A stretch of 64,000 bases of DNA from an uncultured Bdellovibrio sp. (GCA_963932905.1 CAWVRN010000027.1:55-64054), one strand, 5' to 3'; numbered from the stretch's first letter, positions 2,618 to 20,995 are shown. Notes: a model not told the origin generated them from the sequence alone. Numbers and translations are program-made.

Positions 2618-4147
2618 TTACTTACCCTCAAAGTCAGGAGCACCCTGAGACAGCCAGTTATTCAATCGAGTGATTTCTGCATCCGTGAAATCTCTCTTAC
2701 CTTCTTTAGGTGGCATTTTACCTTTGTGAAGCTCTGTCTTTACACGTCTCATCCAGTCAGAGCGATCTTCATTTTTCTTATTACTGATCAACGCATACCA
2801 ATCCAAATTCTGAACTTCAAAATTTTCGTTTTGTTGATTATGACAGCCTTGGCATTTCTTAAGTGTTTTATAGGCACTTACTGTAGCCAACTGAGATTCC
2901 GTATATTGAACCGGAGTATAGAAGTCCTTTTTCATTACCAGGTGTTTGATGAAATCTTGAGGCTTTTGGTTTACATCTTTAAATGCTTTCACCAATTCGA
3001 TTTCTTGTGACGGAGTTAAAATGCTGTTCTCACCATAAATCCATTTCCAAAAATGTCTGACTTGACATGAAAAATAGTCTTTTTCAGTAGTCAGAACAGA
3101 ACCCAGGTTACCAATACCATCGACTGTATGTTTGCTGAACTCACCATCTTCATTATAATAGTTAAGTGCACCTATCGATGCTTTGGCGTTCAACCGATTT
3201 GGTGACAGATTAAATAAATCACCCAGCGGATCAAGCTGCTTATGGCAATGCTGACAGTCCACATTCGTTCCGTGAATTTGTGTCATCTTGGTATGGTTAA
3301 CTAAATCGTTCTCTGTGTACTGACCTTCTCCAGCTAGAGCCAATTTCTTATTTTCGTCCACGCCCTCTTTAGGAACGGGAATCGACGCGACCATATCTTT
3401 ACAAAGAAACGTTCTAAACACAGCCGCAGCTCTGCGGCGATTGCTATTAACACCCGTCGTTACGTAACGACTCAAAAAGCTTGGTGTTGTTAAAGCACCG
3501 GCAATACGTTTATCGTCGCCAGGAAAACTAATACGAACACCAGTGAAATTCTCTGCGTCTGAATTATAAGTCTTATCCAGCGACGTATCTGTTAGTTCCG
3601 AAATGGGAAGCATATCGAATTCTTTCAGTTTAGGCTGCAAACCTGAATAGAATAGCAACTGTTGCAAGCCAAAGTCAGACTCGTTCTTTGAATAAAAAAC
3701 AAAATAATTCTTACGATTCAAAATATCAGTCCATGGACTATTCGTTTCCAATATCTCGCGTACTAACAAATGAAATGCAGAATATCCGTATTTGTAACTT
3801 CCATATTCTGGAGACAACGGAACGCCAGAATATTTTGAATAGTCCGACGTGAAATTGTAACTGATTGGCGCTTGATCCATTCTAAATGTATCCGAAACCT
3901 TATTCGCAAACTTCATTCCGAACTCTTTAGACTTCAAATATTCATCCAGTTTTAATTCTAAAACTTTTTCCACCGGCATAGATTTCAATTTCTCAACCAC
4001 ATCTACATACTCAGCCGCCGATGGATTTTTTCCGCGCACTACGTAACTTAGTTTCTTAAGTTTATGTTCAATGGCAAGTTCTTGCGCAACAGAAGTTCCG
4101 CAATTTATAAGTAGTAAAAATGAAATGAAAATGTTAAGCGCGCGCAT
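2618..4147 (-). CDS. Secreted protein with two CxxCH motifs (DUF1588/PSCyt-like putative heme-binding protein)
   Basis: 509 aa with a signal peptide. CQHCHKQLDPLGDLF resembles the CxxCH..DPxG motif of the DUF1588-type family. The C-terminal CQGCH ... MPPKEG..FTDAEITRLNNWLSQGAP resembles a planctomycete-type cytochrome c domain. Confidence 0.6.
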   Translation of the reverse strand: MRALNIFISFLLLINCGTSVAQELAIEHKLKKLSYVVRGKNPSAAEYVDVVEKLKSMPVEKVLELKLDEYLKSKEFGMKFANKVSDTFRMDQAPISYNFTSDYSKYSGVPLSPEYGSYKYGYSAFHLLVREILETNSPWTDILNRKNYFVFYSKNESDFGLQQLLFYSGLQPKLKEFDMLPISELTDTSLDKTYNSDAENFTGVRISFPGDDKRIAGALTTPSFLSRYVTTGVNSNRRRAAAVFRTFLCKDMVASIPVPKEGVDENKKLALAGEGQYTENDLVNHTKMTQIHGTNVDCQHCHKQLDPLGDLFNLSPNRLNAKASIGALNYYNEDGEFSKHTVDGIGNLGSVLTTEKDYFSCQVRHFWKWIYGENSILTPSQEIELVKAFKDVNQKPQDFIKHLVMKKDFYTPVQYTESQLATVSAYKTLKKCQGCHNQQNENFEVQNLDWYALISNKKNEDRSDWMRRVKTELHKGKMPPKEGKRDFTDAEITRLNNWLSQGAPDFEGK

Positions 4148-10959: not shown

Positions 10960-11520
10960 CTAAAGGAGCTTTTTAGTCTTGTTATACCCGACCTGAATCA
11001 GCATTTTTAAGGCTTCTTGGTTTGTCGTTAGGTTCAATTTCAGACGAACTTCATTGATTAGGGCGATTGACGTTGAATCTAGCTCCAAAGAACCCGACAT
11101 TGAAGACACTGCCTGGGACGGTTGGGTATTCACATGAGTAGTCAGACCCGAATTATACTTTTTCTCCAAAGCCTGGAAATCCAAAGTTAATGCCTCTGCT
11201 ACTTTTTGAGGCGATTCACGCTTCGGTGGACCTTGAATATTCAAAGCATCCGCAGACTTAGCAGCGACCGCAGGAGTCCCCTCTTTTTCAAACTCACCCA
11301 TCAAACCTGCTAATTGTTTAAGCTCATGCTTAAAATTTTGGATCGAAGGGCGATCTAAAGCAGCGTCGCCGTCGCGAGTGGCTTTTAAATACAGACTGAC
11401 TAAAATATCAGGCGTGGTTGCCATTTCTTTTAGAGATGGATCCTGATTTTGCAACCAAGCGTACGCTTTTAAGAGCGAGTCTTTCGTGTAAGCTTGAGGT
11501 GGAATCGGATTCATTGTCAT
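10960..11520 (-). CDS. Hypothetical protein
   Basis: The ORF track gives a 199-aa frame from a TTG. I placed the start at the first ATG (MTMNPIPPQ...). There is no recognisable motif and the start is uncertain. Confidence 0.4.
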   Translation of the reverse strand: MTMNPIPPQAYTKDSLLKAYAWLQNQDPSLKEMATTPDILVSLYLKATRDGDAALDRPSIQNFKHELKQLAGLMGEFEKEGTPAVAAKSADALNIQGPPKRESPQKVAEALTLDFQALEKKYNSGLTTHVNTQPSQAVSSMSGSLELDSTSIALINEVRLKLNLTTNQEALKMLIQVGYNKTKKLL

Positions 11521-11700
11521 AGGAAAAACGACCCTAAGAATGTATCGCCTTCGAGTCAATACATCTTATTCGTCCATAAAAATAATGAATGGCATTATAA
11601 AAATTAATTATTTGGTGGCCAAAAATTTGAACATTTTCCTAAATAGCGTGAAATAGCTTGCCAGCGCTCATTTCACAAAAAATCATTCCACTTTCGTTAC

Positions 11701-12243
11701 TTAGTTTTTCTCTACAAATTTTTTAAGCGCTTTTAGTGTCTTAATTCGGGGTTTATGCTCGGAAATTTTAGTGTTGAGCGCGACACTCTGATCGATTTTT
11801 CCCGGCTCATTAATATCGAACACAAATCCTTGTTGCCAATAATCAGATGATCGACCTGACATTGGCTCTAGGGTTAGAATTGACAAAATTCTAAGTCCGC
11901 TATTAGATGTTTTTGCGGCAGTCGCCATTACGGCATCGACGGAAACAATATTCCAACCATTTTCAACTGTCGCCAGTTCGACTTGATCTACTATGTTTTT
12001 TCCGTCAGCTAAAACAAATTTAGGAACTTGAGACTCGCCACCAAGCTCTGAAAATGCAAATACAATTGTCTTTCCTTTTAAAGATCCTGAACTAATTTTA
12101 AAAACTTGGTCGAAATCTAATGTGTACCCAGGCATTGATGACGAATCGATGTCTGATTTCGCAATTTTCTCCAACAGGCCAGCATTTACGTTGCTAAGAA
12201 CACAGAAACAAATAGCAGCGACTATGTAAAATATTTTGCTCAT
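11701..12243 (-). CDS. Secreted hypothetical protein
   Basis: 180 aa with a signal peptide (MSKIFYIVAAICFCVLSNVNA). Confidence 0.5.
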   Translation of the reverse strand: MSKIFYIVAAICFCVLSNVNAGLLEKIAKSDIDSSSMPGYTLDFDQVFKISSGSLKGKTIVFAFSELGGESQVPKFVLADGKNIVDQVELATVENGWNIVSVDAVMATAAKTSNSGLRILSILTLEPMSGRSSDYWQQGFVFDINEPGKIDQSVALNTKISEHKPRIKTLKALKKFVEKN

Positions 12244-12403
12244 CGTTCCTATATAGTCAAAAACGTTTAAAGGCCTGTCAATGATCGATATGTTTAGTAT
12301 GACCGATTGTGACCAGCCTCTAACATCTAAGGCTAGCCTATACTACGGCACTATAGATTTCCCATTTTCATCCGATGAACACCTCATTAGGGGGACCATC
12401 TCT

Positions 12404-13300
12404 ATGATAAACAAGACTTTAGTATATTTCATAGTGGCTAGCTTAATGGCGTTTATTCTTTCCTCGTGCGATCAGGAAAACAAAACAGTGATTGTTGCTG
12501 GTGATAGCTGGGCTCAATTCGTTTGTGTCTATAAAAGTTTAGACACGGCTTTAAAAAAACAAAATATAAATAATGCAAAAACAAATTCAACCTGCCCGGC
12601 GACGACTCGAATCGGAATGCACGCGGACAATTGGTTATCTTCTAACTATGACAAAGCGACCGAGCTCGCACTGCTGGATCCGACCGTAAAAGTTCTTTAC
12701 TTGAGCATCGGTGGAAACGATGTTTTAAGTTCTTGGAATAAGAATCTTACACCTCAAGAAGAGGACGTCATTTTTAATAAAATTGTTTCCGACGTGAATA
12801 AAATTATCGAAAAATACGCAAAGCAAAGACCCGATGTTAAAATTTTGCTATCTGGATACGATTTTCCACGTTTCACGGAAGACAATGCCATCGAAGAATA
12901 CAAAAATATGTACTTTCAAATGGGGCAACCAAAAGCACTGGAAATTAACTCAGCGATCGTTAAGTTCTCGAACATGATGGCTGATGCCATAAAAACACCA
13001 AATGTTTTCTACATTCAGCACTACGGATTGATGCACTACTATTTTGGAAACTCTGGCAGCGGACTGGCTGCCGGAGTCACATCATCGCCCGACCTAATTT
13101 CTAGTCCTAGCAATATCAAACAAATTGGCGGGGACAAGAATTTATTAACTGACGCCAAGGCGATGATGACAATCGACTCGTCTGGTGTTGTTTTAGGTGA
13201 TGCGTTTCACCTTAGCAAAACCGGTTACAGCTACTTAGCTGACCATACGGTTTTCCATTATTTGAAAAATTGGCTAGAGGCCAAGGAAAATAAAAACTAG
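12404..13300 (+). CDS. SGNH/GDSL-family hydrolase (lipase/esterase-like), probable lipoprotein
   Basis: I moved the start to ATG 12404, preceded by AGGGGGA. It has a signal peptide with Cys (ILSSCD). Blocks VAGDSWAQ (GDS), SIGGNDV and GDAFHLS (DxxH) are present. Confidence 0.65.
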   Translation: MINKTLVYFIVASLMAFILSSCDQENKTVIVAGDSWAQFVCVYKSLDTALKKQNINNAKTNSTCPATTRIGMHADNWLSSNYDKATELALLDPTVKVLYLSIGGNDVLSSWNKNLTPQEEDVIFNKIVSDVNKIIEKYAKQRPDVKILLSGYDFPRFTEDNAIEEYKNMYFQMGQPKALEINSAIVKFSNMMADAIKTPNVFYIQHYGLMHYYFGNSGSGLAAGVTSSPDLISSPSNIKQIGGDKNLLTDAKAMMTIDSSGVVLGDAFHLSKTGYSYLADHTVFHYLKNWLEAKENKN

Positions 13301-13309
13301 TTAATCTGT

Positions 13310-13795
13310 CTACACTTTAACTGCTTTAGAAGCCGCTTCGTAATCTGCACGCAATTTCTTTCTGATCTTCGCTTGCTCATTACGTCTGCGCTCTACTTCG
13401 TTCTCGATAACTAACGGAGGCACATCCGAAGGCTTCCGATCTTTATCGACCGACACCATCGTGAAGAAAGACGACATCACATGACGAGTCGTTTTGCTGC
13501 GCGTGTCTTCCGCAATAACTTTAATCCCGACTTCCATCGACGTTTTTCCAGTGTAGTTCACAGAGGCTTTAAAAGTCACCAGCTCACCAACATGAATAGG
13601 CTCACGAAAAAAAACTTGGTCCACAGATAGAGTCACTACATATTGCCCAGAATAGCGAGCGGCACAGGAATAGGCTGCTTGATCTAGATATTTAAGAATC
13701 GCACCACCGTGAACATTTCCAGCGAAATTAACCAAATCCGGAGTCATTAGAATGGTCATTGTTAAACGCTTGTTGCTGGCAATTTCATTTTCCAT
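13310..13795 (-). CDS. Acyl-CoA thioesterase (hotdog fold)
   Basis: 161 aa. NVHGGAILKYLDQAAYSCA and the overall layout match YciA/BFIT-type thioesterases. Confidence 0.75.
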   Translation of the reverse strand: MENEIASNKRLTMTILMTPDLVNFAGNVHGGAILKYLDQAAYSCAARYSGQYVVTLSVDQVFFREPIHVGELVTFKASVNYTGKTSMEVGIKVIAEDTRSKTTRHVMSSFFTMVSVDKDRKPSDVPPLVIENEVERRRNEQAKIRKKLRADYEAASKAVKV

Positions 13796-13951
13796 GGTAA
13801 CCTCGCCTCCAAATTGTAGAGCTATTTTGATTTTGGTTACAAGGAGATATCCAATATTGGGCGATATTTATTTCTGTAGTAAGGAATTTAGATTCAGGAT
13901 TCAGAAAGCCTAAATAGATCCAACCAAGCACAGTCATAATTTTGGTCGGCT

Positions 13952-14413: not shown

Positions 14414-14436
14414 CAAAAAAGACGAATCTCTCGTCT
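14414..14436 (-). terminator. Rho-independent terminator ending the rSAM-peptide-kinase-regulator operon
   Basis: The minus strand reads AGACGA-GAGAT-TCGTCT followed by TTTTTTG, immediately after the regulator stop codon (14437-14439). Confidence 0.6.
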
Positions 14437-15996
14437 TTACTCGCCGCTGTAATCCTTAGCTACGATGCCGTACTTTTCGATTTTTCGAAGAAGGGTCTTT
14501 TTAGGAATATTTGCGTGTAAGGCCGTTTGATTTATGCGACCTTTGAATGTTTTTAATGCTTTTATTATAAACTCTTTTTCAAACGTCTCTTTTTGAGCGT
14601 TGAAATCAAGTTCGCCGTTGAACGTAACCTTCATTCCCGCGCCGTCCATATCTATCTCGTCAGACTCCTCGTCGGAATCAACATCGGACTCTTCGACAAC
14701 ATCGATACCCGAATCCATAAATATCGGGCCCTTCGCCAACACCGACGACTGAGACTCCGCGAATTGCTTTTCAGCCTCGATCATTTTTTCCAAATCAAAC
14801 AGACTAACTCCAACTGCATCCAGAACCGCTTCTGGCAGCGATGACAAGGTGATCATATGGGAAGACTCGAGTACGAATGAATGCTCAATAACGTTCTCAA
14901 GCTCTCGAATATTTCCTGGCCAGTTGTATTTTTTAAGGATGTTCATTGCATCTACGGTTACACCAGAAATTTTCTTTTTATGAACTTCGTTAAACTTCTT
15001 AACGAAAATTTGGATCAAACGTTCGATGTCGTCTTTACGTTCAGCCAATGCTGGCAAGAATATAGGTACGACATTCAAACGATAGAATAAATCTTCACGG
15101 AAGGTTCCCGCTTTGATCATCTCTTCTAACGGACGATTTGTCGCTGCTATAATACGAACATTAGATTGAATTTCGCGGTTAGAACCAACCGGAGTAAATA
15201 ACTTCTCTTGAAGCACGCGCAGAATCTTAACCTGCATTAACTGCGGCATATCGCCGACTTCATCCAAGAACAGTGTTCCACCTTCAGCGAATTGGAATTT
15301 GCCAATCTTTCTTTCTGAGGCACCCGTGAATGAACCTTTTTCGTGACCAAACAACTCAGATTCAAATAAGTTTTCAGGGATCGCCGAACAGTTGATAGCT
15401 ACGAACTTGTCATCTTTTCTAGACGAGTTGAAATGGATCGCCTTCGCCACCAATTCTTTACCTGTACCCGATGATCCACGGATAAGAACTGGAGTATCTA
15501 CCTTCGCTAGTTTATTGATGATGTTAAACACCTTCTGCATTTGCGATGTATTACCGATAATTTTACGACCCGCTTCTACCAATACAGGCGAGCTAGCGGC
15601 GATGTTTGAAATTAATGAATGGGCATGGATCGCTTTTTCTACTAACGCGATTAAGTCTTCGGCCGCTACTGGCTTAGAAATATAATTGTAAGCGCCATCT
15701 TTGACCGCAACAACGGCGTCGTTCAAAGTAGCATGCGCTGTTAGCATTAACACGATCACACCCGGATCGAATTCTTTCATTTGTTTTAAAGCTTGAAGAC
15801 CGTTCAAGCGAGGCATGTCGACATCCAGTAATACGATATCGATTTTAGAACCTTCAGCGGTAGCTGCTTTGATTTTTTCAAGGGCGTTAATACCATCGAA
15901 TGCTTCAGAAACTTCGAATTTTTTTAAGGCTGCAAAAGCTGATTTGATAGAAAAACGCAATCCTGCATCGTCATCAACCACTAGAATTTTAAACAT
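14437..15996 (-). CDS. Sigma-54-dependent response regulator (NtrC family enhancer-binding protein)
   Basis: 519 aa. The REC domain reads ILVVDDD...LLDVDMP. The AAA+ domain has Walker A GSSGTGKE and ESELFGHEKGSFTGA (GAFTGA loop). A C-terminal Fis-type HTH is present, with an acidic insert (EESDVDSDEESDEID) before it. Confidence 0.9.
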   Translation of the reverse strand: MFKILVVDDDAGLRFSIKSAFAALKKFEVSEAFDGINALEKIKAATAEGSKIDIVLLDVDMPRLNGLQALKQMKEFDPGVIVLMLTAHATLNDAVVAVKDGAYNYISKPVAAEDLIALVEKAIHAHSLISNIAASSPVLVEAGRKIIGNTSQMQKVFNIINKLAKVDTPVLIRGSSGTGKELVAKAIHFNSSRKDDKFVAINCSAIPENLFESELFGHEKGSFTGASERKIGKFQFAEGGTLFLDEVGDMPQLMQVKILRVLQEKLFTPVGSNREIQSNVRIIAATNRPLEEMIKAGTFREDLFYRLNVVPIFLPALAERKDDIERLIQIFVKKFNEVHKKKISGVTVDAMNILKKYNWPGNIRELENVIEHSFVLESSHMITLSSLPEAVLDAVGVSLFDLEKMIEAEKQFAESQSSVLAKGPIFMDSGIDVVEESDVDSDEESDEIDMDGAGMKVTFNGELDFNAQKETFEKEFIIKALKTFKGRINQTALHANIPKKTLLRKIEKYGIVAKDYSGE

Positions 15997-16038
15997 CGAG
16001 GCCTCCTGAGCAGGCTCCCAACGTCTTGGAAACCTTAG

Positions 16039-17910
16039 TTAAAGCTGCGGCAATTGTACTACAAAAATCGTCCCTTTACCAGAGTCCGACTCTACAAATA
16101 TTTGCCCTTGGTGAAGCTCTGTAAAATATTTAGCCAGATATAGGCCCAATCCTGACCCTTTTATCGGCGAGCTCTTCGCATTTGCGCTCCTATAGAACTT
16201 CGAGAATAGGTGAGGCAATTCTTGGGCCGCAATGCCGGGTCCTTGATCCGCAATCACAAAAAATACGAAGCCATCTTTTTCATAGGTCTTTACGCTAATT
16301 TGCGTCTGCTCGGGCGCATATTTAATGGCATTTTCCAAAATATTCGAAAAAACCTGCCTCATCAGGTCTGGATCCATCCTAATTGGGAATAGAGGCTCAA
16401 GTTCAGAATGGATCTTCATCTTTTTGATCTGTGCCAAGAACTCGTGCTTTTTGATTACATCAGTGATTAGATTGTTTGGGTCCTTAGACTGCCAGTGCAG
16501 CTCAACACCCTGGAATTCAATTTTAGCGTAATTTAAAATAGAATTAATGAACTTCAACAAATCATCGCTAGACGATCTAATTGTGTCTACCGCTTCCCTT
16601 TGAGGAAGGCTGACACTTTGCTGATCCGCCAAAATAACATCCGTCATTCCCTTAATACGCGCAATAGGTGTCTTTAAATCGTGGGACATCATCGAAATGA
16701 AATTCGTTTTTAATTCCTCAACCTGTTTTAAAAGCCTGTTCTTTTCGTAATATTCCCAGCTACGACGATTCTCGATAATCAAGCGATAGGGAATGAAGAA
16801 ATAGTAACATAGAAAAATTGCCAGCAGCGGATGGGCCATTGATATCCAAAATCCAAATGGCCAAAATGCAAAATACGCGATCGCCACATACGATACCAGC
16901 AACGAGATAATAATTAACAAGCCCACGGCCGGACGAACCGCAAATACGATGTAAACAGTAATGATCGAGATCAAAATAGTCAGGGCTAAATTGAGCCACA
17001 CGGGTGCACGCACAATCGCGTTGTTCAGTATCAACGTATCAAACATATTGGCGTGCATTTCCGTCGTCGTCATCGCAATCGATGAACGGGAATACGGAGT
17101 CAGGATATAATCTTTTTCAGTTAATTCTAAATTCTGACCAATGATAACGATTTTATCTTTGATCGCCTGAGCTGAAACTTTGCCTTCCGCAAAATAGTGG
17201 AATGGAATTTTGTCATAGGAATTAGTCGGACGGAAATGAATATAAATTTGATCGGTTTCTAAGAAATTAAATAAACCTCGAATTTTATATTTTTCAGCAA
17301 CATCAGGATTATAGGTCGACGCCAGAAACGGATGGATCATGACTTGATCTTGGTAATTAACCATCATCCGGCGAGTTACACCATCTTTAGCAAAGTTGGC
17401 CGTGTCCGTGCTTTTAGGACCCGAAAATAATTTAATGCCCTCAAAAGGCTCGCTCATTTTAAGCTTACCTTCTTCACCACGCATTTCTAAAAAATTGGTC
17501 AGAACAAAGAGTTGTGGAAATGGTTCCGCCGCTTTTGCAAAATCCACTTTCTCTTTTTGATTTCCACTGATTTCGTCATAATTTAAATCATAGACGATGG
17601 CTCGTGGGCCAAGCTTTTTAATTTCTTCTAAAACTTTGGTGTGATCACTGAACTTTGGGATGCCTTTAAAATACTCAACTGATTCCGGATTGATTTCGGC
17701 TATCAAAATGTGCCCTGATGTTTCAGGAGCGGGAGAATATCGAACGCGTAGGTCGTAAAGGTAAGCTTCAAAGAAATCCAGCTTGATTTGATTGATAAAC
17801 AAAGCCAGACCGGTCGCTAGCGCCACTCGGAAAACCATGATTCCTAGAAATTTTATTCTGTCCCAACGGGACGTGGTATCAGTGGTTTTAAGCGAGGGCG
17901 GTAGTGCCAT
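16039..17910 (-). CDS. CHASE2-domain sensor histidine kinase
   Basis: 623 aa. Layout is an N-terminal TM helix, a periplasmic region of about 270 aa with a CHASE2-like pattern (ILIAEINPESVEYFKG...RAIVYDLNYDE), a cluster of TM helices, an H-box (SHDLKTPIARIKG) and an HATPase domain (GSGLGLYLAK). Confidence 0.8.
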   Translation of the reverse strand: MALPPSLKTTDTTSRWDRIKFLGIMVFRVALATGLALFINQIKLDFFEAYLYDLRVRYSPAPETSGHILIAEINPESVEYFKGIPKFSDHTKVLEEIKKLGPRAIVYDLNYDEISGNQKEKVDFAKAAEPFPQLFVLTNFLEMRGEEGKLKMSEPFEGIKLFSGPKSTDTANFAKDGVTRRMMVNYQDQVMIHPFLASTYNPDVAEKYKIRGLFNFLETDQIYIHFRPTNSYDKIPFHYFAEGKVSAQAIKDKIVIIGQNLELTEKDYILTPYSRSSIAMTTTEMHANMFDTLILNNAIVRAPVWLNLALTILISIITVYIVFAVRPAVGLLIIISLLVSYVAIAYFAFWPFGFWISMAHPLLAIFLCYYFFIPYRLIIENRRSWEYYEKNRLLKQVEELKTNFISMMSHDLKTPIARIKGMTDVILADQQSVSLPQREAVDTIRSSSDDLLKFINSILNYAKIEFQGVELHWQSKDPNNLITDVIKKHEFLAQIKKMKIHSELEPLFPIRMDPDLMRQVFSNILENAIKYAPEQTQISVKTYEKDGFVFFVIADQGPGIAAQELPHLFSKFYRSANAKSSPIKGSGLGLYLAKYFTELHQGQIFVESDSGKGTIFVVQLPQL

Positions 17911-17917
17911 TAGTTTT

Positions 17918-18058
17918 TTATCTTATTGGTAAACAGCCTTCGCCACCTTTGGCTTTAATAGCAGCTGATTCGCTATTAGCACCTTTAGATGATGATTTTG
18001 GCTTAATTTTTTTAATACTTTTAGATTTCATAATCGTTCCTAGTTCGATGTTTAACAT
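17918..18058 (-). CDS. Unannotated short ORF: candidate precursor peptide ending in CLPIR
   Basis: Hand translation of the minus strand gives MLNIELGTIMKSKSIKKIKPKSSSKGANSESAAIKAKGGEGCLPIR (46 aa from ATG 18058, with GGGG upstream). The alternative is 37 aa from ATG 18031, with AGGAA 6 nt upstream. The TAA stop at 17918-17920 lies 7 nt before the kinase ATG. It is below the 60-aa ORF-track cutoff. Confidence 0.5.
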   Translation of the reverse strand: MLNIELGTIMKSKSIKKIKPKSSSKGANSESAAIKAKGGEGCLPIR

Positions 18059-18107
18059 ATATACCCCTTTTTAAAAAATTTCAATTTTAATATCCGTTTT
18101 CAGACCA

Positions 18108-19463
18108 TTAAGCGGTCTGTTCCTCTCTGGCGATGGCATAGTAGTATAATGCTAGCGCCAGTAAAAATCTCGTTCTTTCACAGAATTGCAAACTTTTCTG
18201 TAATGTGTCCTTTTTCGACGTTGTTTGGTGGATAAACGAGCATCCCCCACCACACATATATTTCGCCCAACACGACTGACAGTTATTACGCTCTATAATC
18301 GTTTCTTCAGCGTATCCCGCTAGTTTAGCTTCATCCAGCACCGACCCACTACCTAGGCGATCCTGAACGCTGCCAACGGTCCAAGGACAATTGAACACTT
18401 GGTTGCGGCTATCAATCACCGCAAAACTTCGGCCCAATCCACAATGGTTTTCTAAACGTTCTTGTGAATCCAAGCGATCGAAATAGTTATCAAACAAATA
18501 GATCTTACGCAGTTCTGTTTCGCCGCCTAAATCCCATGCGGCTTTCGCGGTTTTCGTAACTTCTAGCATGTACTGCTCATTCGAAGCTTCGTCTAAATCG
18601 CTAACAGAATAAATAAAATCAATCCAATCGAAATTGAATTGTCTGAAATACTCATACGTTTCTAAAACCGCCGTGTGATCTTTAGTAAATACAGCGTGAA
18701 CGGCTACTGGACCGATCTCTGAACGAACTAAGTTCAATTTCGCTAACGTACTTTCAATCGCTTGCGATGTTGGTTTATTATTTTTTTGCGGACGGAAACG
18801 ATCGGTAATTTCAGGTTTTCCATCCATGCTGATCACAACCGTCGGTTTGTAAGTAGAAAGTAAATTTAAAATTTCATCATTCAGCAATGTGCCATTCGTT
18901 GTGATTTTGTATGACGGCAAAAAACCTTTTTCTTTAGCGGCCCCCGCAACGTACTCACAAATCGCGCGAATCCCCGCTGGGTACAGCAATGGTTCGCCAC
19001 CCAAGAAACTAATATGGAAGCGCTCACCTTTATCCAGTTTAGAAATAAAATAACTCAGCTGAGGTAATGTTTTTTCAATTTCAATACGCTTAACAGGATC
19101 GCCGTAACTACCATCACCGCCAGCGGCGCAGTAAGTGCATTTCAAATTACAAATTTGCGTCACGTTGATATTTAAACTTCTGGCTTTGAATTGAGTTTTA
19201 GTTTTTTTCAATTCAACAACGGGAGATTCTTGGCTCCATGTTTTTAGTTCGTTCGCATTTTCTGCCGACAAATCGGCACCAAATGTTTGTGGAATGATCG
19301 CGGATTTCAATGAAACTTTTGTCAGGCCATTGAACACCTCAGGCGTAAGTCTAGCCACTTCCAAGCTGTCGCTTTGAAAACCAATAAACGCATCCTTACC
19401 GTGCCCCAAAAAAGAGGCGGCGTTAAAGGCAGCTAGGTTTTGATATCGGCTAAGGTCTAACAC
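18108..19463 (-). CDS. Radical SAM/SPASM-domain enzyme (anSME-like peptide maturase candidate)
   Basis: 451 aa from a GTG start with GGAG 7 nt upstream. It has C105-x3-C109-x2-C112 (ICNLKCTYC). The full 7-Cys SPASM pattern is C341-x17-C359, C395-x2-C398-x5-C404-x3-C408 and C428. About 100 aa precede the rSAM motif. Confidence 0.85.
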   Translation of the reverse strand: MLDLSRYQNLAAFNAASFLGHGKDAFIGFQSDSLEVARLTPEVFNGLTKVSLKSAIIPQTFGADLSAENANELKTWSQESPVVELKKTKTQFKARSLNINVTQICNLKCTYCAAGGDGSYGDPVKRIEIEKTLPQLSYFISKLDKGERFHISFLGGEPLLYPAGIRAICEYVAGAAKEKGFLPSYKITTNGTLLNDEILNLLSTYKPTVVISMDGKPEITDRFRPQKNNKPTSQAIESTLAKLNLVRSEIGPVAVHAVFTKDHTAVLETYEYFRQFNFDWIDFIYSVSDLDEASNEQYMLEVTKTAKAAWDLGGETELRKIYLFDNYFDRLDSQERLENHCGLGRSFAVIDSRNQVFNCPWTVGSVQDRLGSGSVLDEAKLAGYAEETIIERNNCQSCWAKYMCGGGCSFIHQTTSKKDTLQKSLQFCERTRFLLALALYYYAIAREEQTA

Positions 19464-19500
19464 TTTTTGACTCCAGTTGCATGTTCCGCTTAATTACCTA

Positions 19501-19516
19501 TGCAAAAAGGAAACCA
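19501..19516 (-). promoter_or_regulatory. Candidate sigma-54 (-24/-12) promoter upstream of the rSAM operon
   Basis: The minus strand reads TGGTTTCCTTTTTGCA. The GG and GC dinucleotides have the canonical spacing of TGGCACG-N4-TTGCW. The -24 half is degenerate (TGGTTT). It ends 37 nt before the GTG start. Confidence 0.35.
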
Positions 19517-19687
19517 ATTTCCAACAAAAACAATTTACGTTTTCATCTGTTATTTCAAATAGATAACTAACTTTTTAACGGTGCCTTTTTGTCCCCCATT
19601 AACGAAGGACTGGCCAGCCTTCAGGCAAACCTAAAAAAAACACAGGGTTCTAGTTTCAGTTTGCACCTCAAAGTCCGATGAAAATGC

Positions 19688-20347
19688 ATGAATTTCCTAG
19701 GGTATAAAAACCTAATTTTTCTATACGTTCTAGCCGTTGTAGTTCTGCAAATGGGCTGCAGCAAAGGCGTCTATTTAGGTCCCGAGTCTGCCGAATTTTT
19801 GGCAACGGCATCAGAAGAAGACTGCGGCTATTTACAGAACGAATATGGCCAACGAGTTTCGTGGAAAGAAAATTTACCGGCAGAATTTTTCGTTTCCAAA
19901 ACTATACCCGAAGAATTTCGTCAAGATATTATCGACGCAGCCGAGGTTTGGAACAAATCGGCTGGAAAAACTGTTTTCAAAATTAACCTATCTGACTTAG
20001 ACGCCGGTCTTTCGACCTCGGATTCAAGAAATACAATCGCGGGCTACCAAACTTGGGACGAAGACAAAACGACTCAACAAGCAGTCACTATCGTAAAATA
20101 TCGCAGCAACCTAATTACAAGTGCCGATATAAAAGTTAACTTACATGATTTTGTTTATTACTCAAAAGATCCACAAAATTCAAAGCAAGTTCATTTTGGT
20201 AGTTTGCTAGTTCACGAACTTGGTCACGCGATGGGTTTAAAACACGCTTCGATTCGTCCAACAGTTATGTGGGCTACACTGGGTTTTGATATCGTCAGAA
20301 CTTCGATTTCAACAACCGATCAAAAATCGATAGGATGCGAGTACTAA
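19688..20347 (+). CDS. Metzincin-type zinc metalloprotease, probable lipoprotein
   Basis: 219 aa. It has a signal peptide with a lipobox-like LQMGCS, the HELGHAMGLKH motif (HExxHxxGxxH) and a downstream TVMW Met-turn candidate. Confidence 0.7.
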   Translation: MNFLGYKNLIFLYVLAVVVLQMGCSKGVYLGPESAEFLATASEEDCGYLQNEYGQRVSWKENLPAEFFVSKTIPEEFRQDIIDAAEVWNKSAGKTVFKINLSDLDAGLSTSDSRNTIAGYQTWDEDKTTQQAVTIVKYRSNLITSADIKVNLHDFVYYSKDPQNSKQVHFGSLLVHELGHAMGLKHASIRPTVMWATLGFDIVRTSISTTDQKSIGCEY

Positions 20348-20995
20348 ATGAAAAAAATATTAGCTCCATTAATTGTTTTCATTCTAATCGCTGCAAGCAC
20401 CTTAGTTTTCAGAAATCAAAATTTACGTCAACCATCTTCAGTGAATGTCGATCAGAACGGAATTCTGAAATTGATCGATAACGATCTATCAAGAAACGAA
20501 AACAAAAAACAAATCAAACGAGCTATTTTGCAAAGCTTAGATTGGAATTTTTCTGTTGAAAAATCGCAGCTCTCTTTTAAATTCGAAAATATTAAACTCC
20601 CTAATGGTAGCCAAACCAGCGACCTTTGCACTGCTTATTCACAGGCCACAATAACGCTAGAGGCACCCAACGTCAGTTACAGTGGCGAGCACCCGGAAAT
20701 AAATATTATTCAAAACTGCGAGAGCTTAGGAAATATTGTACAGTTTGAAATAGATCTGGGTTTACTGACTGATGTTTCCATACTGCAAACCGTGAAGGAA
20801 CAATCCAAATCGCTTGATTCCAGCATCCGCATAAACAATTGGGATGACGACGCCCCAGACAAATGGCGCGTAAAACAAGTGATCTTTCACAGTGCTTCAA
20901 AAACTCAAAAGCAAAATTTCGAAATAACAAAATATGAAATTCTTTCTGTACTTGGCTATTCTGTTGAATTTCAAACCACAGCAAAGAAACAATAA
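20348..20995 (+). CDS. Secreted hypothetical protein
   Basis: 215 aa with a signal/anchor (MKKILAPLIVFILIAAS). Its ATG directly follows the protease TAA (TAAATG). Confidence 0.5.
   Translation: MKKILAPLIVFILIAASTLVFRNQNLRQPSSVNVDQNGILKLIDNDLSRNENKKQIKRAILQSLDWNFSVEKSQLSFKFENIKLPNGSQTSDLCTAYSQATITLEAPNVSYSGEHPEINIIQNCESLGNIVQFEIDLGLLTDVSILQTVKEQSKSLDSSIRINNWDDDAPDKWRVKQVIFHSASKTQKQNFEITKYEILSVLGYSVEFQTTAKKQ

Follow-up and report, generated by a model that had tools for sequence, protein, structure and literature searches.

Two kinds of described system come closest to the locus reported here. In sigma-54-dependent two-component systems such as NtrBC, ZraSR and AtoSC, the regulator consists of a receiver, an AAA+ domain that carries a loop of the GAFTGA type, and a helix-turn-helix (HTH) of the Fis type, the -24/-12 promoter is accompanied by an upstream palindrome and an AT-rich spacer, and the kinase and regulator genes are themselves part of the regulated transcript. 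In ranthipeptide systems, such as SCIFF CteA/CteB (thermocellin) and PapA/PapB (freyrasin), the precursor is short, with a leader at the N terminus and a core containing Cys at the C terminus, and its gene stands beside that of a radical SAM enzyme that has a CX3CX2C motif, a seven-Cys SPASM domain and an N-terminal alpha/beta domain. Features of both are found together in a 64,000-nucleotide (nt) stretch of DNA from an uncultured Bdellovibrio sp. (GCA_963932905.1 CAWVRN010000027.1:55-64054; the window in what follows), in which positions 14,414 to 19,516 hold genes for a radical SAM maturase, a short peptide, a CHASE2 histidine kinase and an NtrC-type response regulator. We consider it fairly probable that this module is a sigma-54-dependent, positively autoregulated two-component operon carrying a cargo that resembles a ribosomally made peptide with post-translational modifications (RiPP). 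No paper combining CHASE2, radical SAM and a peptide was found in a literature search, nor was any description of the module, and nothing specific was found on Bdellovibrio in connection with ranthipeptides or CHASE2.

Architecture and conservation of the module

A first-pass annotation, made from the DNA sequence alone, had described these four genes as a self-contained unit on the minus strand, with a sigma-54-like element in front of the maturase gene, narrow gaps around a kinase gene without its own Shine-Dalgarno sequence, and a terminator directly after the regulator gene. All of these elements were recovered here, and the open reading frames (ORFs) and Pfam domains agree with the four gene assignments. 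The maturase gene (18108–19463; this and all other module features are on the minus strand) starts with GTG and encodes 451 residues that include a Radical_SAM domain (3.4e-13). The peptide gene (17918–18031) encodes 37 residues when read from the second in-frame ATG at 18031 (MKSKSIKKIKPKSSSKGANSESAAIKAKGGEGCLPIR), or 46 residues when read from the upstream ATG at 18058 (17918–18058). For the kinase (16039–17910, 623 residues), Pfam identified CHASE2 (approximately residues 35–316), HisKA and HATPase_c domains, and Pfam and alignment together give a layout of one transmembrane helix, the periplasmic CHASE2 domain, three more transmembrane helices, and then HisKA and HATPase_c. The regulator (14437–15996, 519 residues) contains Response_reg (1.7e-25), Sigma54_activat (2.5e-72), AAA_lid_14 and HTH_8 (3.9e-6) domains, with a readable GSFTGA loop in the AAA+ domain and an HTH of the Fis type. 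All of its NCBIfam matches are below the equivalog cut-offs (AtoC, 420 versus 714; NtrC, 409 versus 559; ZraR, 368 versus 760), and orthology to a named system (AtoC, NtrC, ZraR or GlrR) was not found by this measure. Between the AAA+ domain and the HTH, at residues ~425–455 (window 14640–14730), the regulator carries an acidic low-complexity insertion, DVVEESDVDSDEESDEIDMD.

The peptide stop codon is separated from the kinase ATG by 7 nt (17917–17911), and the kinase stop codon from the regulator ATG by 42 nt. Shine-Dalgarno sequences are present before the maturase gene (GGAG) and the regulator gene (AGGAGG), and no GGAG-like one was found in AAGATAAAAAACTAATG, 5' of the kinase gene, whose translation is probably coupled to that of the peptide ORF. 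The intrinsic terminator (14418–14438) consists of a 9-bp stem and a T-run and lies over the regulator stop codon; its fold has an energy of -12 kcal/mol (z = -3.1). No terminator-like hairpins were found in the intergenic gaps of the four-gene module. In an Rfam scan of the locus, nothing was found beyond a sub-threshold match of the small RNA isrK on this same hairpin (14415–14492, minus strand; 26.5 bits versus a gathering score of 50), which was rejected as almost certainly spurious.

The module is conserved far beyond the window, in a comparative set of about 135 Bdellovibrionales loci overall. A scan based on the maturase, with one genome per species, yielded 80 loci, all with the Bdellovibrio-type gene order. 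The CHASE2 kinase gene follows 90–350 nt after the maturase gene in each of the 77 genome loci long enough to include this position, and the regulator gene comes next in 67 of the 68 that extend further, with regulator identities of 66–95% across loci. All loci identified through the maturase have the peptide gene between maturase and kinase genes with the kinase gene immediately downstream, at gaps of 7–54 nt where the start is clear. The window maturase has an identical counterpart among Tara Oceans genes; its best genome match, from 'Bdellovibrio sp. 28-41-41', shows 93% identity. With this near-universal synteny in the Bdellovibrionales, the four genes make up one conserved unit that is probably autoregulated. 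The single exception to the regulator position is L077, where a P-type cation ATPase gene (11364–13892) stands in its place; this locus is labelled as a Streptomyces griseus metagenome-assembled genome (MAG) and another, L052, as a Bacillota MAG, and as both have a Bdellovibrio-type locus they are probably mis-binned contigs. The genes flanking the module are housekeeping genes, encoding PBP1, an MBL-fold protein and a 2Fe-2S ferredoxin, together with ileS and lspA, and a survey of the conserved neighbours out to ±8 kb found neither a transporter nor a leader peptidase. The locus occupies a core position of the chromosome that is inherited vertically, and is not a mobile biosynthetic cluster.

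The -24/-12 promoter element, TGGTTTCCTTTTTGCA (19501–19516), fits TGG-N8-TTGCW and lies 37 nt before the GTG of the maturase gene. As a single match it is not above chance in 64 kb (three matches in the window, compared to 4.8 expected), and the case for it therefore rests on conservation. The strict motif was found 5' of the maturase gene in 65 of 81 loci, and in 71 if NGG is allowed, with an expectation of about 0.01 per locus; in nearly all of the 65 it is located 28–150 nt upstream of the maturase start. In the B. bacteriovorus-type loci (L021, L033, L037 and L053–L057) the -12 element ends ~14–16 nt before the predicted maturase ATG; judged from this spacing, the maturase mRNA would be nearly leaderless there, or else the start codon is mis-assigned. 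One further locus, L009, has an assembly gap (a run of N between G-runs) exactly at the promoter region, and its promoter was not scorable.

Eighty nt upstream of the promoter TGG starts a palindromic, enhancer-like site, GGGGACAAAAAGGCACC (19580–19596), that agrees with the consensus at 13 of 14 positions; no other strong copy was found in the window. In the regions upstream of the maturase gene in the genome loci, 54 sites fit the consensus GGTGnCAAAAnGnCACC (GGTGTCA-N3-TGACACC type), compared to 1.0 in shuffled sequences, and their distances from the promoter take the fixed values -80, -112, -56 and +40. The strict form of the palindrome, GGTGTCANNNTGACACC, occurs 22 times in 1.9 Mb of fetched DNA, and 18 of these sites are situated at most 350 nt upstream of the operon. 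We regard the palindrome as a candidate binding site, i.e. an upstream activating site, of the co-encoded NtrC-type regulator, an assignment supported by the fact that it also accompanies the regulator in the loci without maturase described below. A hairpin in the 5' untranslated region of the mRNA was considered as the principal explanation of the motif and rejected, since copies of the motif also lie upstream of the promoter and in loci without the peptide, and the 5' untranslated region of the window is unfolded. Between palindrome and promoter lies an AT-rich element, TATCTATTTGAAATAAC (19549–19565), which resembles an IHF-type bending site; in a promoter-anchored listing it can be seen by eye in many clades, as ..ATTGAAATTAC.. 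or ..ATTTGATTATAC... Palindrome, AT-rich spacer and -24/-12 element constitute the classical layout of an enhancer-dependent sigma-54 promoter. A second promoter-plus-palindrome pair was not found in the window.

The precursor-like peptide and its probable maturase

An ORF of the same architecture is present in every gap between maturase and kinase genes (131 loci, 119 distinct sequences), which identifies the product of the short ORF as a genuine, conserved peptide that resembles a precursor. The encoded peptides are characterized by an N-terminal leader motif H-I-K-K-[VIL]-K-P (H 83%, I 93%, K 82%, K 87%, V/I/L 90%, K 73%, P 75%), a variable spacer rich in Gly, Ser, Thr and Lys, and a G-x-x-C-x-P core. 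A single Cys is present in 116 of the 119 distinct peptides, and the core has G at position -3 in 66%, a small residue at -1 in 92% and Pro at +2 in 95%. The +4 residue is G in 55 peptides and R in 25 (R or K in 36), and 48 of the 119 stop four residues past the Cys. Discrete core types can be distinguished, i.e. CIPVR, CIPSGNPPD, CPPVGGD and CFPLG. The window peptide has SIKKIKP as its leader motif and its single Cys in a GEGCLPIR core. Within the subclade of the window, most substitutions downstream of the second ATG (18031) affect third codon positions, and those between the two ATGs change amino acids; the 37-residue form, MKSKSIKKIKP...GGEGCLPIR, is therefore the likelier product. In one Bdellovibrio MAG (L032), two tandem precursor genes (3473–3565 and 3591–3707) lie between the maturase and kinase genes. 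No Pfam or NCBIfam family was found for the peptide with ten variants at E <= 10, and a phmmer search of the 37-residue peptide against 1.84 billion representatives returned only two near relatives. The peptide defines a new family of precursors, marked by the HIKKxKP leader and a C-x-P core with a single Cys.

The maturase shows the hallmarks of peptide-modifying SPASM enzymes. Its CX3CX2C motif (C105/C109/C112) is invariant in 15 diverse homologues, as are seven SPASM cysteines (C341, C359, C395, C398, C404, C408 and C428), which align with the cysteines of CteB. The NCBIfam scores are highest for PapB (168 bits), followed by the nif11-type family (154), QhpD (127) and SCIFF (121), all of which are peptide thioether maturases, and then anSME (TIGR03942, 88). 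The enzyme is a relative that belongs to no named equivalog, and represents an unassigned branch of SPASM maturases. Its best sequence match in the PDB is CteB (5wgg, 2e-41), and anSME (4k36) is matched at 1e-15. The AlphaFold model (pLDDT 78, pTM 0.81) was aligned by Foldseek with CteB over the full length, N-terminal domain included, with a TM score of 0.70, and with anSME with scores of 0.54–0.57. Residues 1–80 are modelled as an alpha/beta domain (pLDDT 73–89 per 10-residue block) that has no PqqD/RRE match in Pfam, and whose predicted fold is consistent with peptide binding.

In CteB and anSMEcpe structures, seven SPASM cysteines go together with an open iron on auxiliary cluster I, which binds the substrate Cys in thioether formers, and the auxiliary clusters of anSME are fully ligated. 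The additional anSME cysteines, in the aligned CGMNGTCTC segment, are absent from the maturase. Being closest to CteB and having only seven SPASM cysteines, the maturase would most probably form one intramolecular thioether ring near C-x-P. A different chemistry, in which the Cys would be converted to C-alpha-formylglycine as by anSME, or would undergo another single-residue radical modification, giving a reactive aldehyde peptide, has some features in its favour. The C-L-P-I-R end of the window peptide fits the sulfatase motif C-x-P-x-R, the Pro at +2 is nearly general and R or K stands at +4 in 36 of the 119 peptides, anSME is a significant relative by bit score, PDB match and fold, and the residues flanking the Cys include no conserved acceptor for a thioether. 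However, CteB, PapB and QhpD, which form thioethers, are much nearer to the enzyme, it has just the seven SPASM cysteines without those extra to anSME, and the commonest +4 residue is G, so that the sulfatase Arg is not a family feature. We therefore regard such a different chemistry as very improbable and retain the thioether ring as the preferred product.

Origin, expression and proposed role of the cargo

When metagenomes were searched with the kinase instead of the maturase, 75 loci could be evaluated. Maturase and peptide genes are present upstream of the kinase gene in 59 of these, and are absent in the other 16. Fourteen of the 16 form a sister clade, the closest relatives of which are labelled 'Oligoflexia bacterium'; their kinases are 39–45% and their regulators 58–65% identical to those of the window. 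The sister loci share their context with the Bdellovibrionales, in the order PBP1 ... histidine kinase–response regulator pair, a protein of ~170 residues, and then ileS. Among 12 sister loci inspected, 10 have a sigma-54 promoter immediately upstream of the kinase gene, and palindromes of the GGTGTCA-N3-TGACAC type are visible in 9–10. The shared chromosomal context, promoter and palindrome indicate that the sister kinase–regulator pairs are positional orthologues. The comparison points to the kinase–regulator–promoter unit as the older, ancestral one, and the maturase–peptide pair would be an insertion, elsewhere a loss, between promoter and kinase. The other two loci, L093 and L133, lie inside the Bdellovibrionales clade and have the kinase gene directly beside the MBL gene, with maturase and peptide genes absent; in L133 a frameshift also splits the kinase gene. 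Together they suggest occasional loss and decay of the module. The first-pass annotation had named, as an observation that would refute its reading, orthologous kinase–regulator pairs that routinely lack maturase and peptide. Such pairs do exist in the sister clade and in these two loci, which counts in part against sensing of the peptide by CHASE2.

In B. bacteriovorus HD100, the likely orthologues of the four genes are Bd3357–Bd3360, an assignment that relies on annotation and on the matching order of six consecutive genes, not on sequence. The table of Lambert et al., the values of which we read as fold changes on the strength of the main text, gives 1.59 for Bd3357, 2.23 for Bd3358, 2.18 for Bd3359 and 3.02 for Bd3360 (p <= 4e-5), i.e. 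co-induction at 30 min into predation (PMC2797640). That paper describes the up-regulation of Bd3359 and Bd3360 as specific to predation and absent from host-independent growth, and its table annotates Bd3357 as 'heme biosynthesis' and Bd3358 as 'hypothetical' (PMC2797640). Co-induction of the four likely orthologues fits one regulated unit. In a 2025 proteome study, Bd3360 rose by 1.96 log units with a peak at 3 h and was down by 7 h, Bd3359 rose by 0.86, and the maturase Bd3357 changed by +0.27 and then -1.0; these values, all in log units, are relative to attack phase mixed with prey (PMC12546842). The sigma-54 gene rpoN (Bd0843) is present and expressed in HD100, and Crossman et al. include an orthologue of Bd3359 from Bacteriovorax marinus in a core set specific to predators. 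Bd3357–Bd3360 are not listed in the Tn-seq supplement.

We propose the following circuit. The CHASE2 domain would detect a cue, which in B. bacteriovorus HD100 would appear after prey entry, and the kinase would phosphorylate the NtrC-type regulator. The regulator would bind the GGTGTCA-N3-TGACACC palindrome ~80 nt upstream of the -24 element and activate sigma-54 RNA polymerase at TGG-N8-TTGCA. One transcript would then run from the maturase gene through the peptide, kinase and regulator genes to the terminator, which would make the system self-amplifying. In the Bdellovibrionales, where the maturase–peptide pair lies between promoter and kinase, the peptide would be made each time the system fires; the CteB-like enzyme would dock the HIKKxKP leader on its N-terminal domain and modify the core at the single Cys. 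The modified peptide would be an output of the circuit, a predation-phase product, and not an obligatory input. We infer each of the single transcript, the binding of the regulator to the palindrome, the chemistry and the role of the peptide.

The first-pass annotation suggested a peptide-linked, possibly autoregulatory circuit, with extracellular sensing as speculative and an intracellular action as an alternative. In its full form, this model makes the modified peptide an input: it would be exported and serve as the cognate ligand of the periplasmic CHASE2 domain, in an autoinduction loop reminiscent of quorum sensing. We consider this unlikely. The peptide gene is indeed always immediately upstream of the kinase gene at the short gaps given above, in the window in front of a kinase gene without its own Shine-Dalgarno sequence, and the core has diversified into the discrete types listed above. 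Moreover, the distance between peptide cores correlates with that between CHASE2 domains when regulator distance is controlled for (partial rho 0.25, reached in 0 of 500 permutations); this is about the value found with the maturase (0.255), and higher than the 0.10 found with the catalytic domain of the kinase and the 0.09 found with the adjacent MBL gene. However, evolutionary rate and common phylogeny are both confounders of this test. Sensor and peptide do not always occur together, as the 14 sister-clade loci and the two in-clade loci have the kinase–regulator pair only, and the positional orthologues keep promoter and palindrome without peptide and maturase. In addition, at CHASE2 positions conserved in at least 90% of the peptide-bearing kinases, the consensus residue is the same in the peptide-less kinases. 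The peptide itself is hydrophilic, as originally described, and also very basic; it lacks a signal peptide, and neither an exporter nor a leader peptidase was found to be conserved in the ±8 kb surveyed. Sensing of the peptide by CHASE2 is thus disfavoured by the peptide-less orthologues, the common CHASE2 consensus residues and the lack of a conserved export route.

In peptide-bearing lineages, CHASE2 seems to evolve faster than the kinase domain. This was also considered as a sign of ligand co-evolution, and was rejected: the unrelated neighbour PBP1 shifts likewise, so that a lineage effect is the explanation. The most far-reaching form of the ligand model, in which the modified single-Cys peptide is a private, diversifying autoinducer that is sensed by CHASE2 and times or synchronises Bdellovibrio growth inside prey, we hold to be distinctly unlikely. 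If true, it would provide the first ligand class for a CHASE2 sensor and a new form of peptide signalling in a Gram-negative predator. The peptide is in any case a specific candidate for the CHASE2 ligand question, with the peptide-less sister lineages as a natural negative control.

The peptide might also remain within the cell, as a lineage-wide housekeeping product resembling SCIFF, as a redox or cofactor precursor, or as a direct modulator of the kinase or regulator. Its hydrophilic and very basic character agrees with this, as does the failure to find export or processing genes nearby. The module further occupies a vertically inherited core site between the PBP1, MBL and ferredoxin genes and ileS–lspA, and the closest enzyme, CteB, belongs to the SCIFF system, whose enzyme and peptide are likewise conserved across a whole lineage and are not known to have a transporter or protease of their own. 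Against this stand the lack of positive evidence for any intracellular target, the absence of any sign of a cofactor pathway in the sequence, and the absence of extra tailoring enzymes. Such an intracellular function appears quite improbable to us, and the autoregulated operon with the peptide as its output remains our preferred interpretation.

Several observations count against that interpretation. The HD100 expression data bear on it through genes matched by annotation and gene order, and the unequal protein rises (+0.27 for the maturase compared to +1.96 for the regulator) make internal promoters or differential stability possible. About 10 of the 81 loci, all from one subclade in which the maturase gene abuts the MBL gene, have no recognisable -24/-12 element, and the promoter may have been replaced there. 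In several clades, the +40 copy of the palindrome, downstream of the promoter, overlaps the Shine-Dalgarno sequence and start codon, and this copy may partly be a reflection of the composition of ribosome-binding sites. The maturase scores below every curated family cut-off (PapB, 340; SCIFF maturase, 425; anSME, 349), which makes any assignment of its chemistry tentative, and with no conserved acceptor residue the partner carbon of a thioether is not predictable. Finally, the covariation of peptide core and CHASE2 domain hints that the peptide is perhaps more than passive cargo.

The promoter-less subclade comprises L011–L013, L016–L018, L039 and L067, and its peptides are of the CIPTGQPPDSAL type; L017 instead carries three TTTGCA repeats at 11-nt spacing. 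Other observations concern the neighbouring genes. Divergent from the maturase gene, the window encodes a secreted-looking matrixin lipoprotein (19688–20347, plus strand; Peptidase_M10, HELGHAMGLKH), followed by a 215-residue protein (20348–20995, plus strand). This pair shares the palindrome-bearing intergenic region and is found in only 11 loci, all from the window's own subclade; it could be co-regulated with the module, or could process the peptide. In the B. bacteriovorus-type loci (L037, 5583–7787, minus strand; L021), a second CHASE2 histidine kinase of 734 residues, very divergent and with 21% identity to the window kinase, is encoded just upstream of the maturase gene in divergent orientation; it is probably Bd3356. 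On the other side of the module, a protein of ~180–200 residues without a Pfam family (window 10960–11559, minus strand) is encoded directly after the regulator gene in 54 loci, before ileS/lspA; in the window, a thioesterase-like gene, an SGNH-like gene and genes for small secreted proteins are inserted between the two.

Comparison with known systems

Since 2010, the likely HD100 orthologues Bd3359 and Bd3360 have figured in lists of predation-induced regulators without an assigned role, the HD100 maturase gene is still annotated as 'heme biosynthesis', and the peptide gene is mostly unannotated or hypothetical. Placing the four genes in one sigma-54 operon with a RiPP-like cargo gives this predation-induced regulatory system a testable output.

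The resemblance to NtrBC, ZraSR and AtoSC lies in the regulator, the promoter layout and the inclusion of kinase and regulator genes in the transcript. Unlike these systems, the module has a CHASE2 sensor and a maturase–peptide cargo, and in some clades a palindrome downstream of the promoter. The agr and ComQXPA/ComCDE systems and the shp/rgg streptide radical SAM operon likewise link a ribosomal peptide, a modifying enzyme and a sensory system, and like them the module is probably self-activating. In contrast to agr and com, no component of the AgrB, ComQ or C39-ABC type was found, the kinase–regulator pair also exists without the peptide, and the system is sigma-54-dependent. With AtsB and anSME the maturase shares the SPASM fold, and the Cys of the window peptide stands in a C-x-P-x-R-like context; the differences are the score (88 bits versus a cut-off of 349), the missing extra cluster-ligating cysteines, a substrate that is a 37-residue peptide instead of a sulfatase, and a +4 Arg that is not conserved.

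The cargo is nearest to the ranthipeptide systems, from which it nevertheless differs in several respects. The enzyme is well below the thresholds of both families (168 versus 340 bits for PapB, 121 versus 425 for SCIFF). The precursor has one Cys, whereas SCIFF has six in ~45 residues and PapA a repeated C-x3-D. The HIKKxKP leader is new, the gene order is enzyme before peptide, and the pair is located inside a two-component operon. It is found in a Gram-negative, aerobic predator and not in a Firmicute. In summary, the locus functions in the manner of an autoregulated NtrC-type two-component system whose operon has taken up a maturase related to CteB together with a new precursor that has one Cys.

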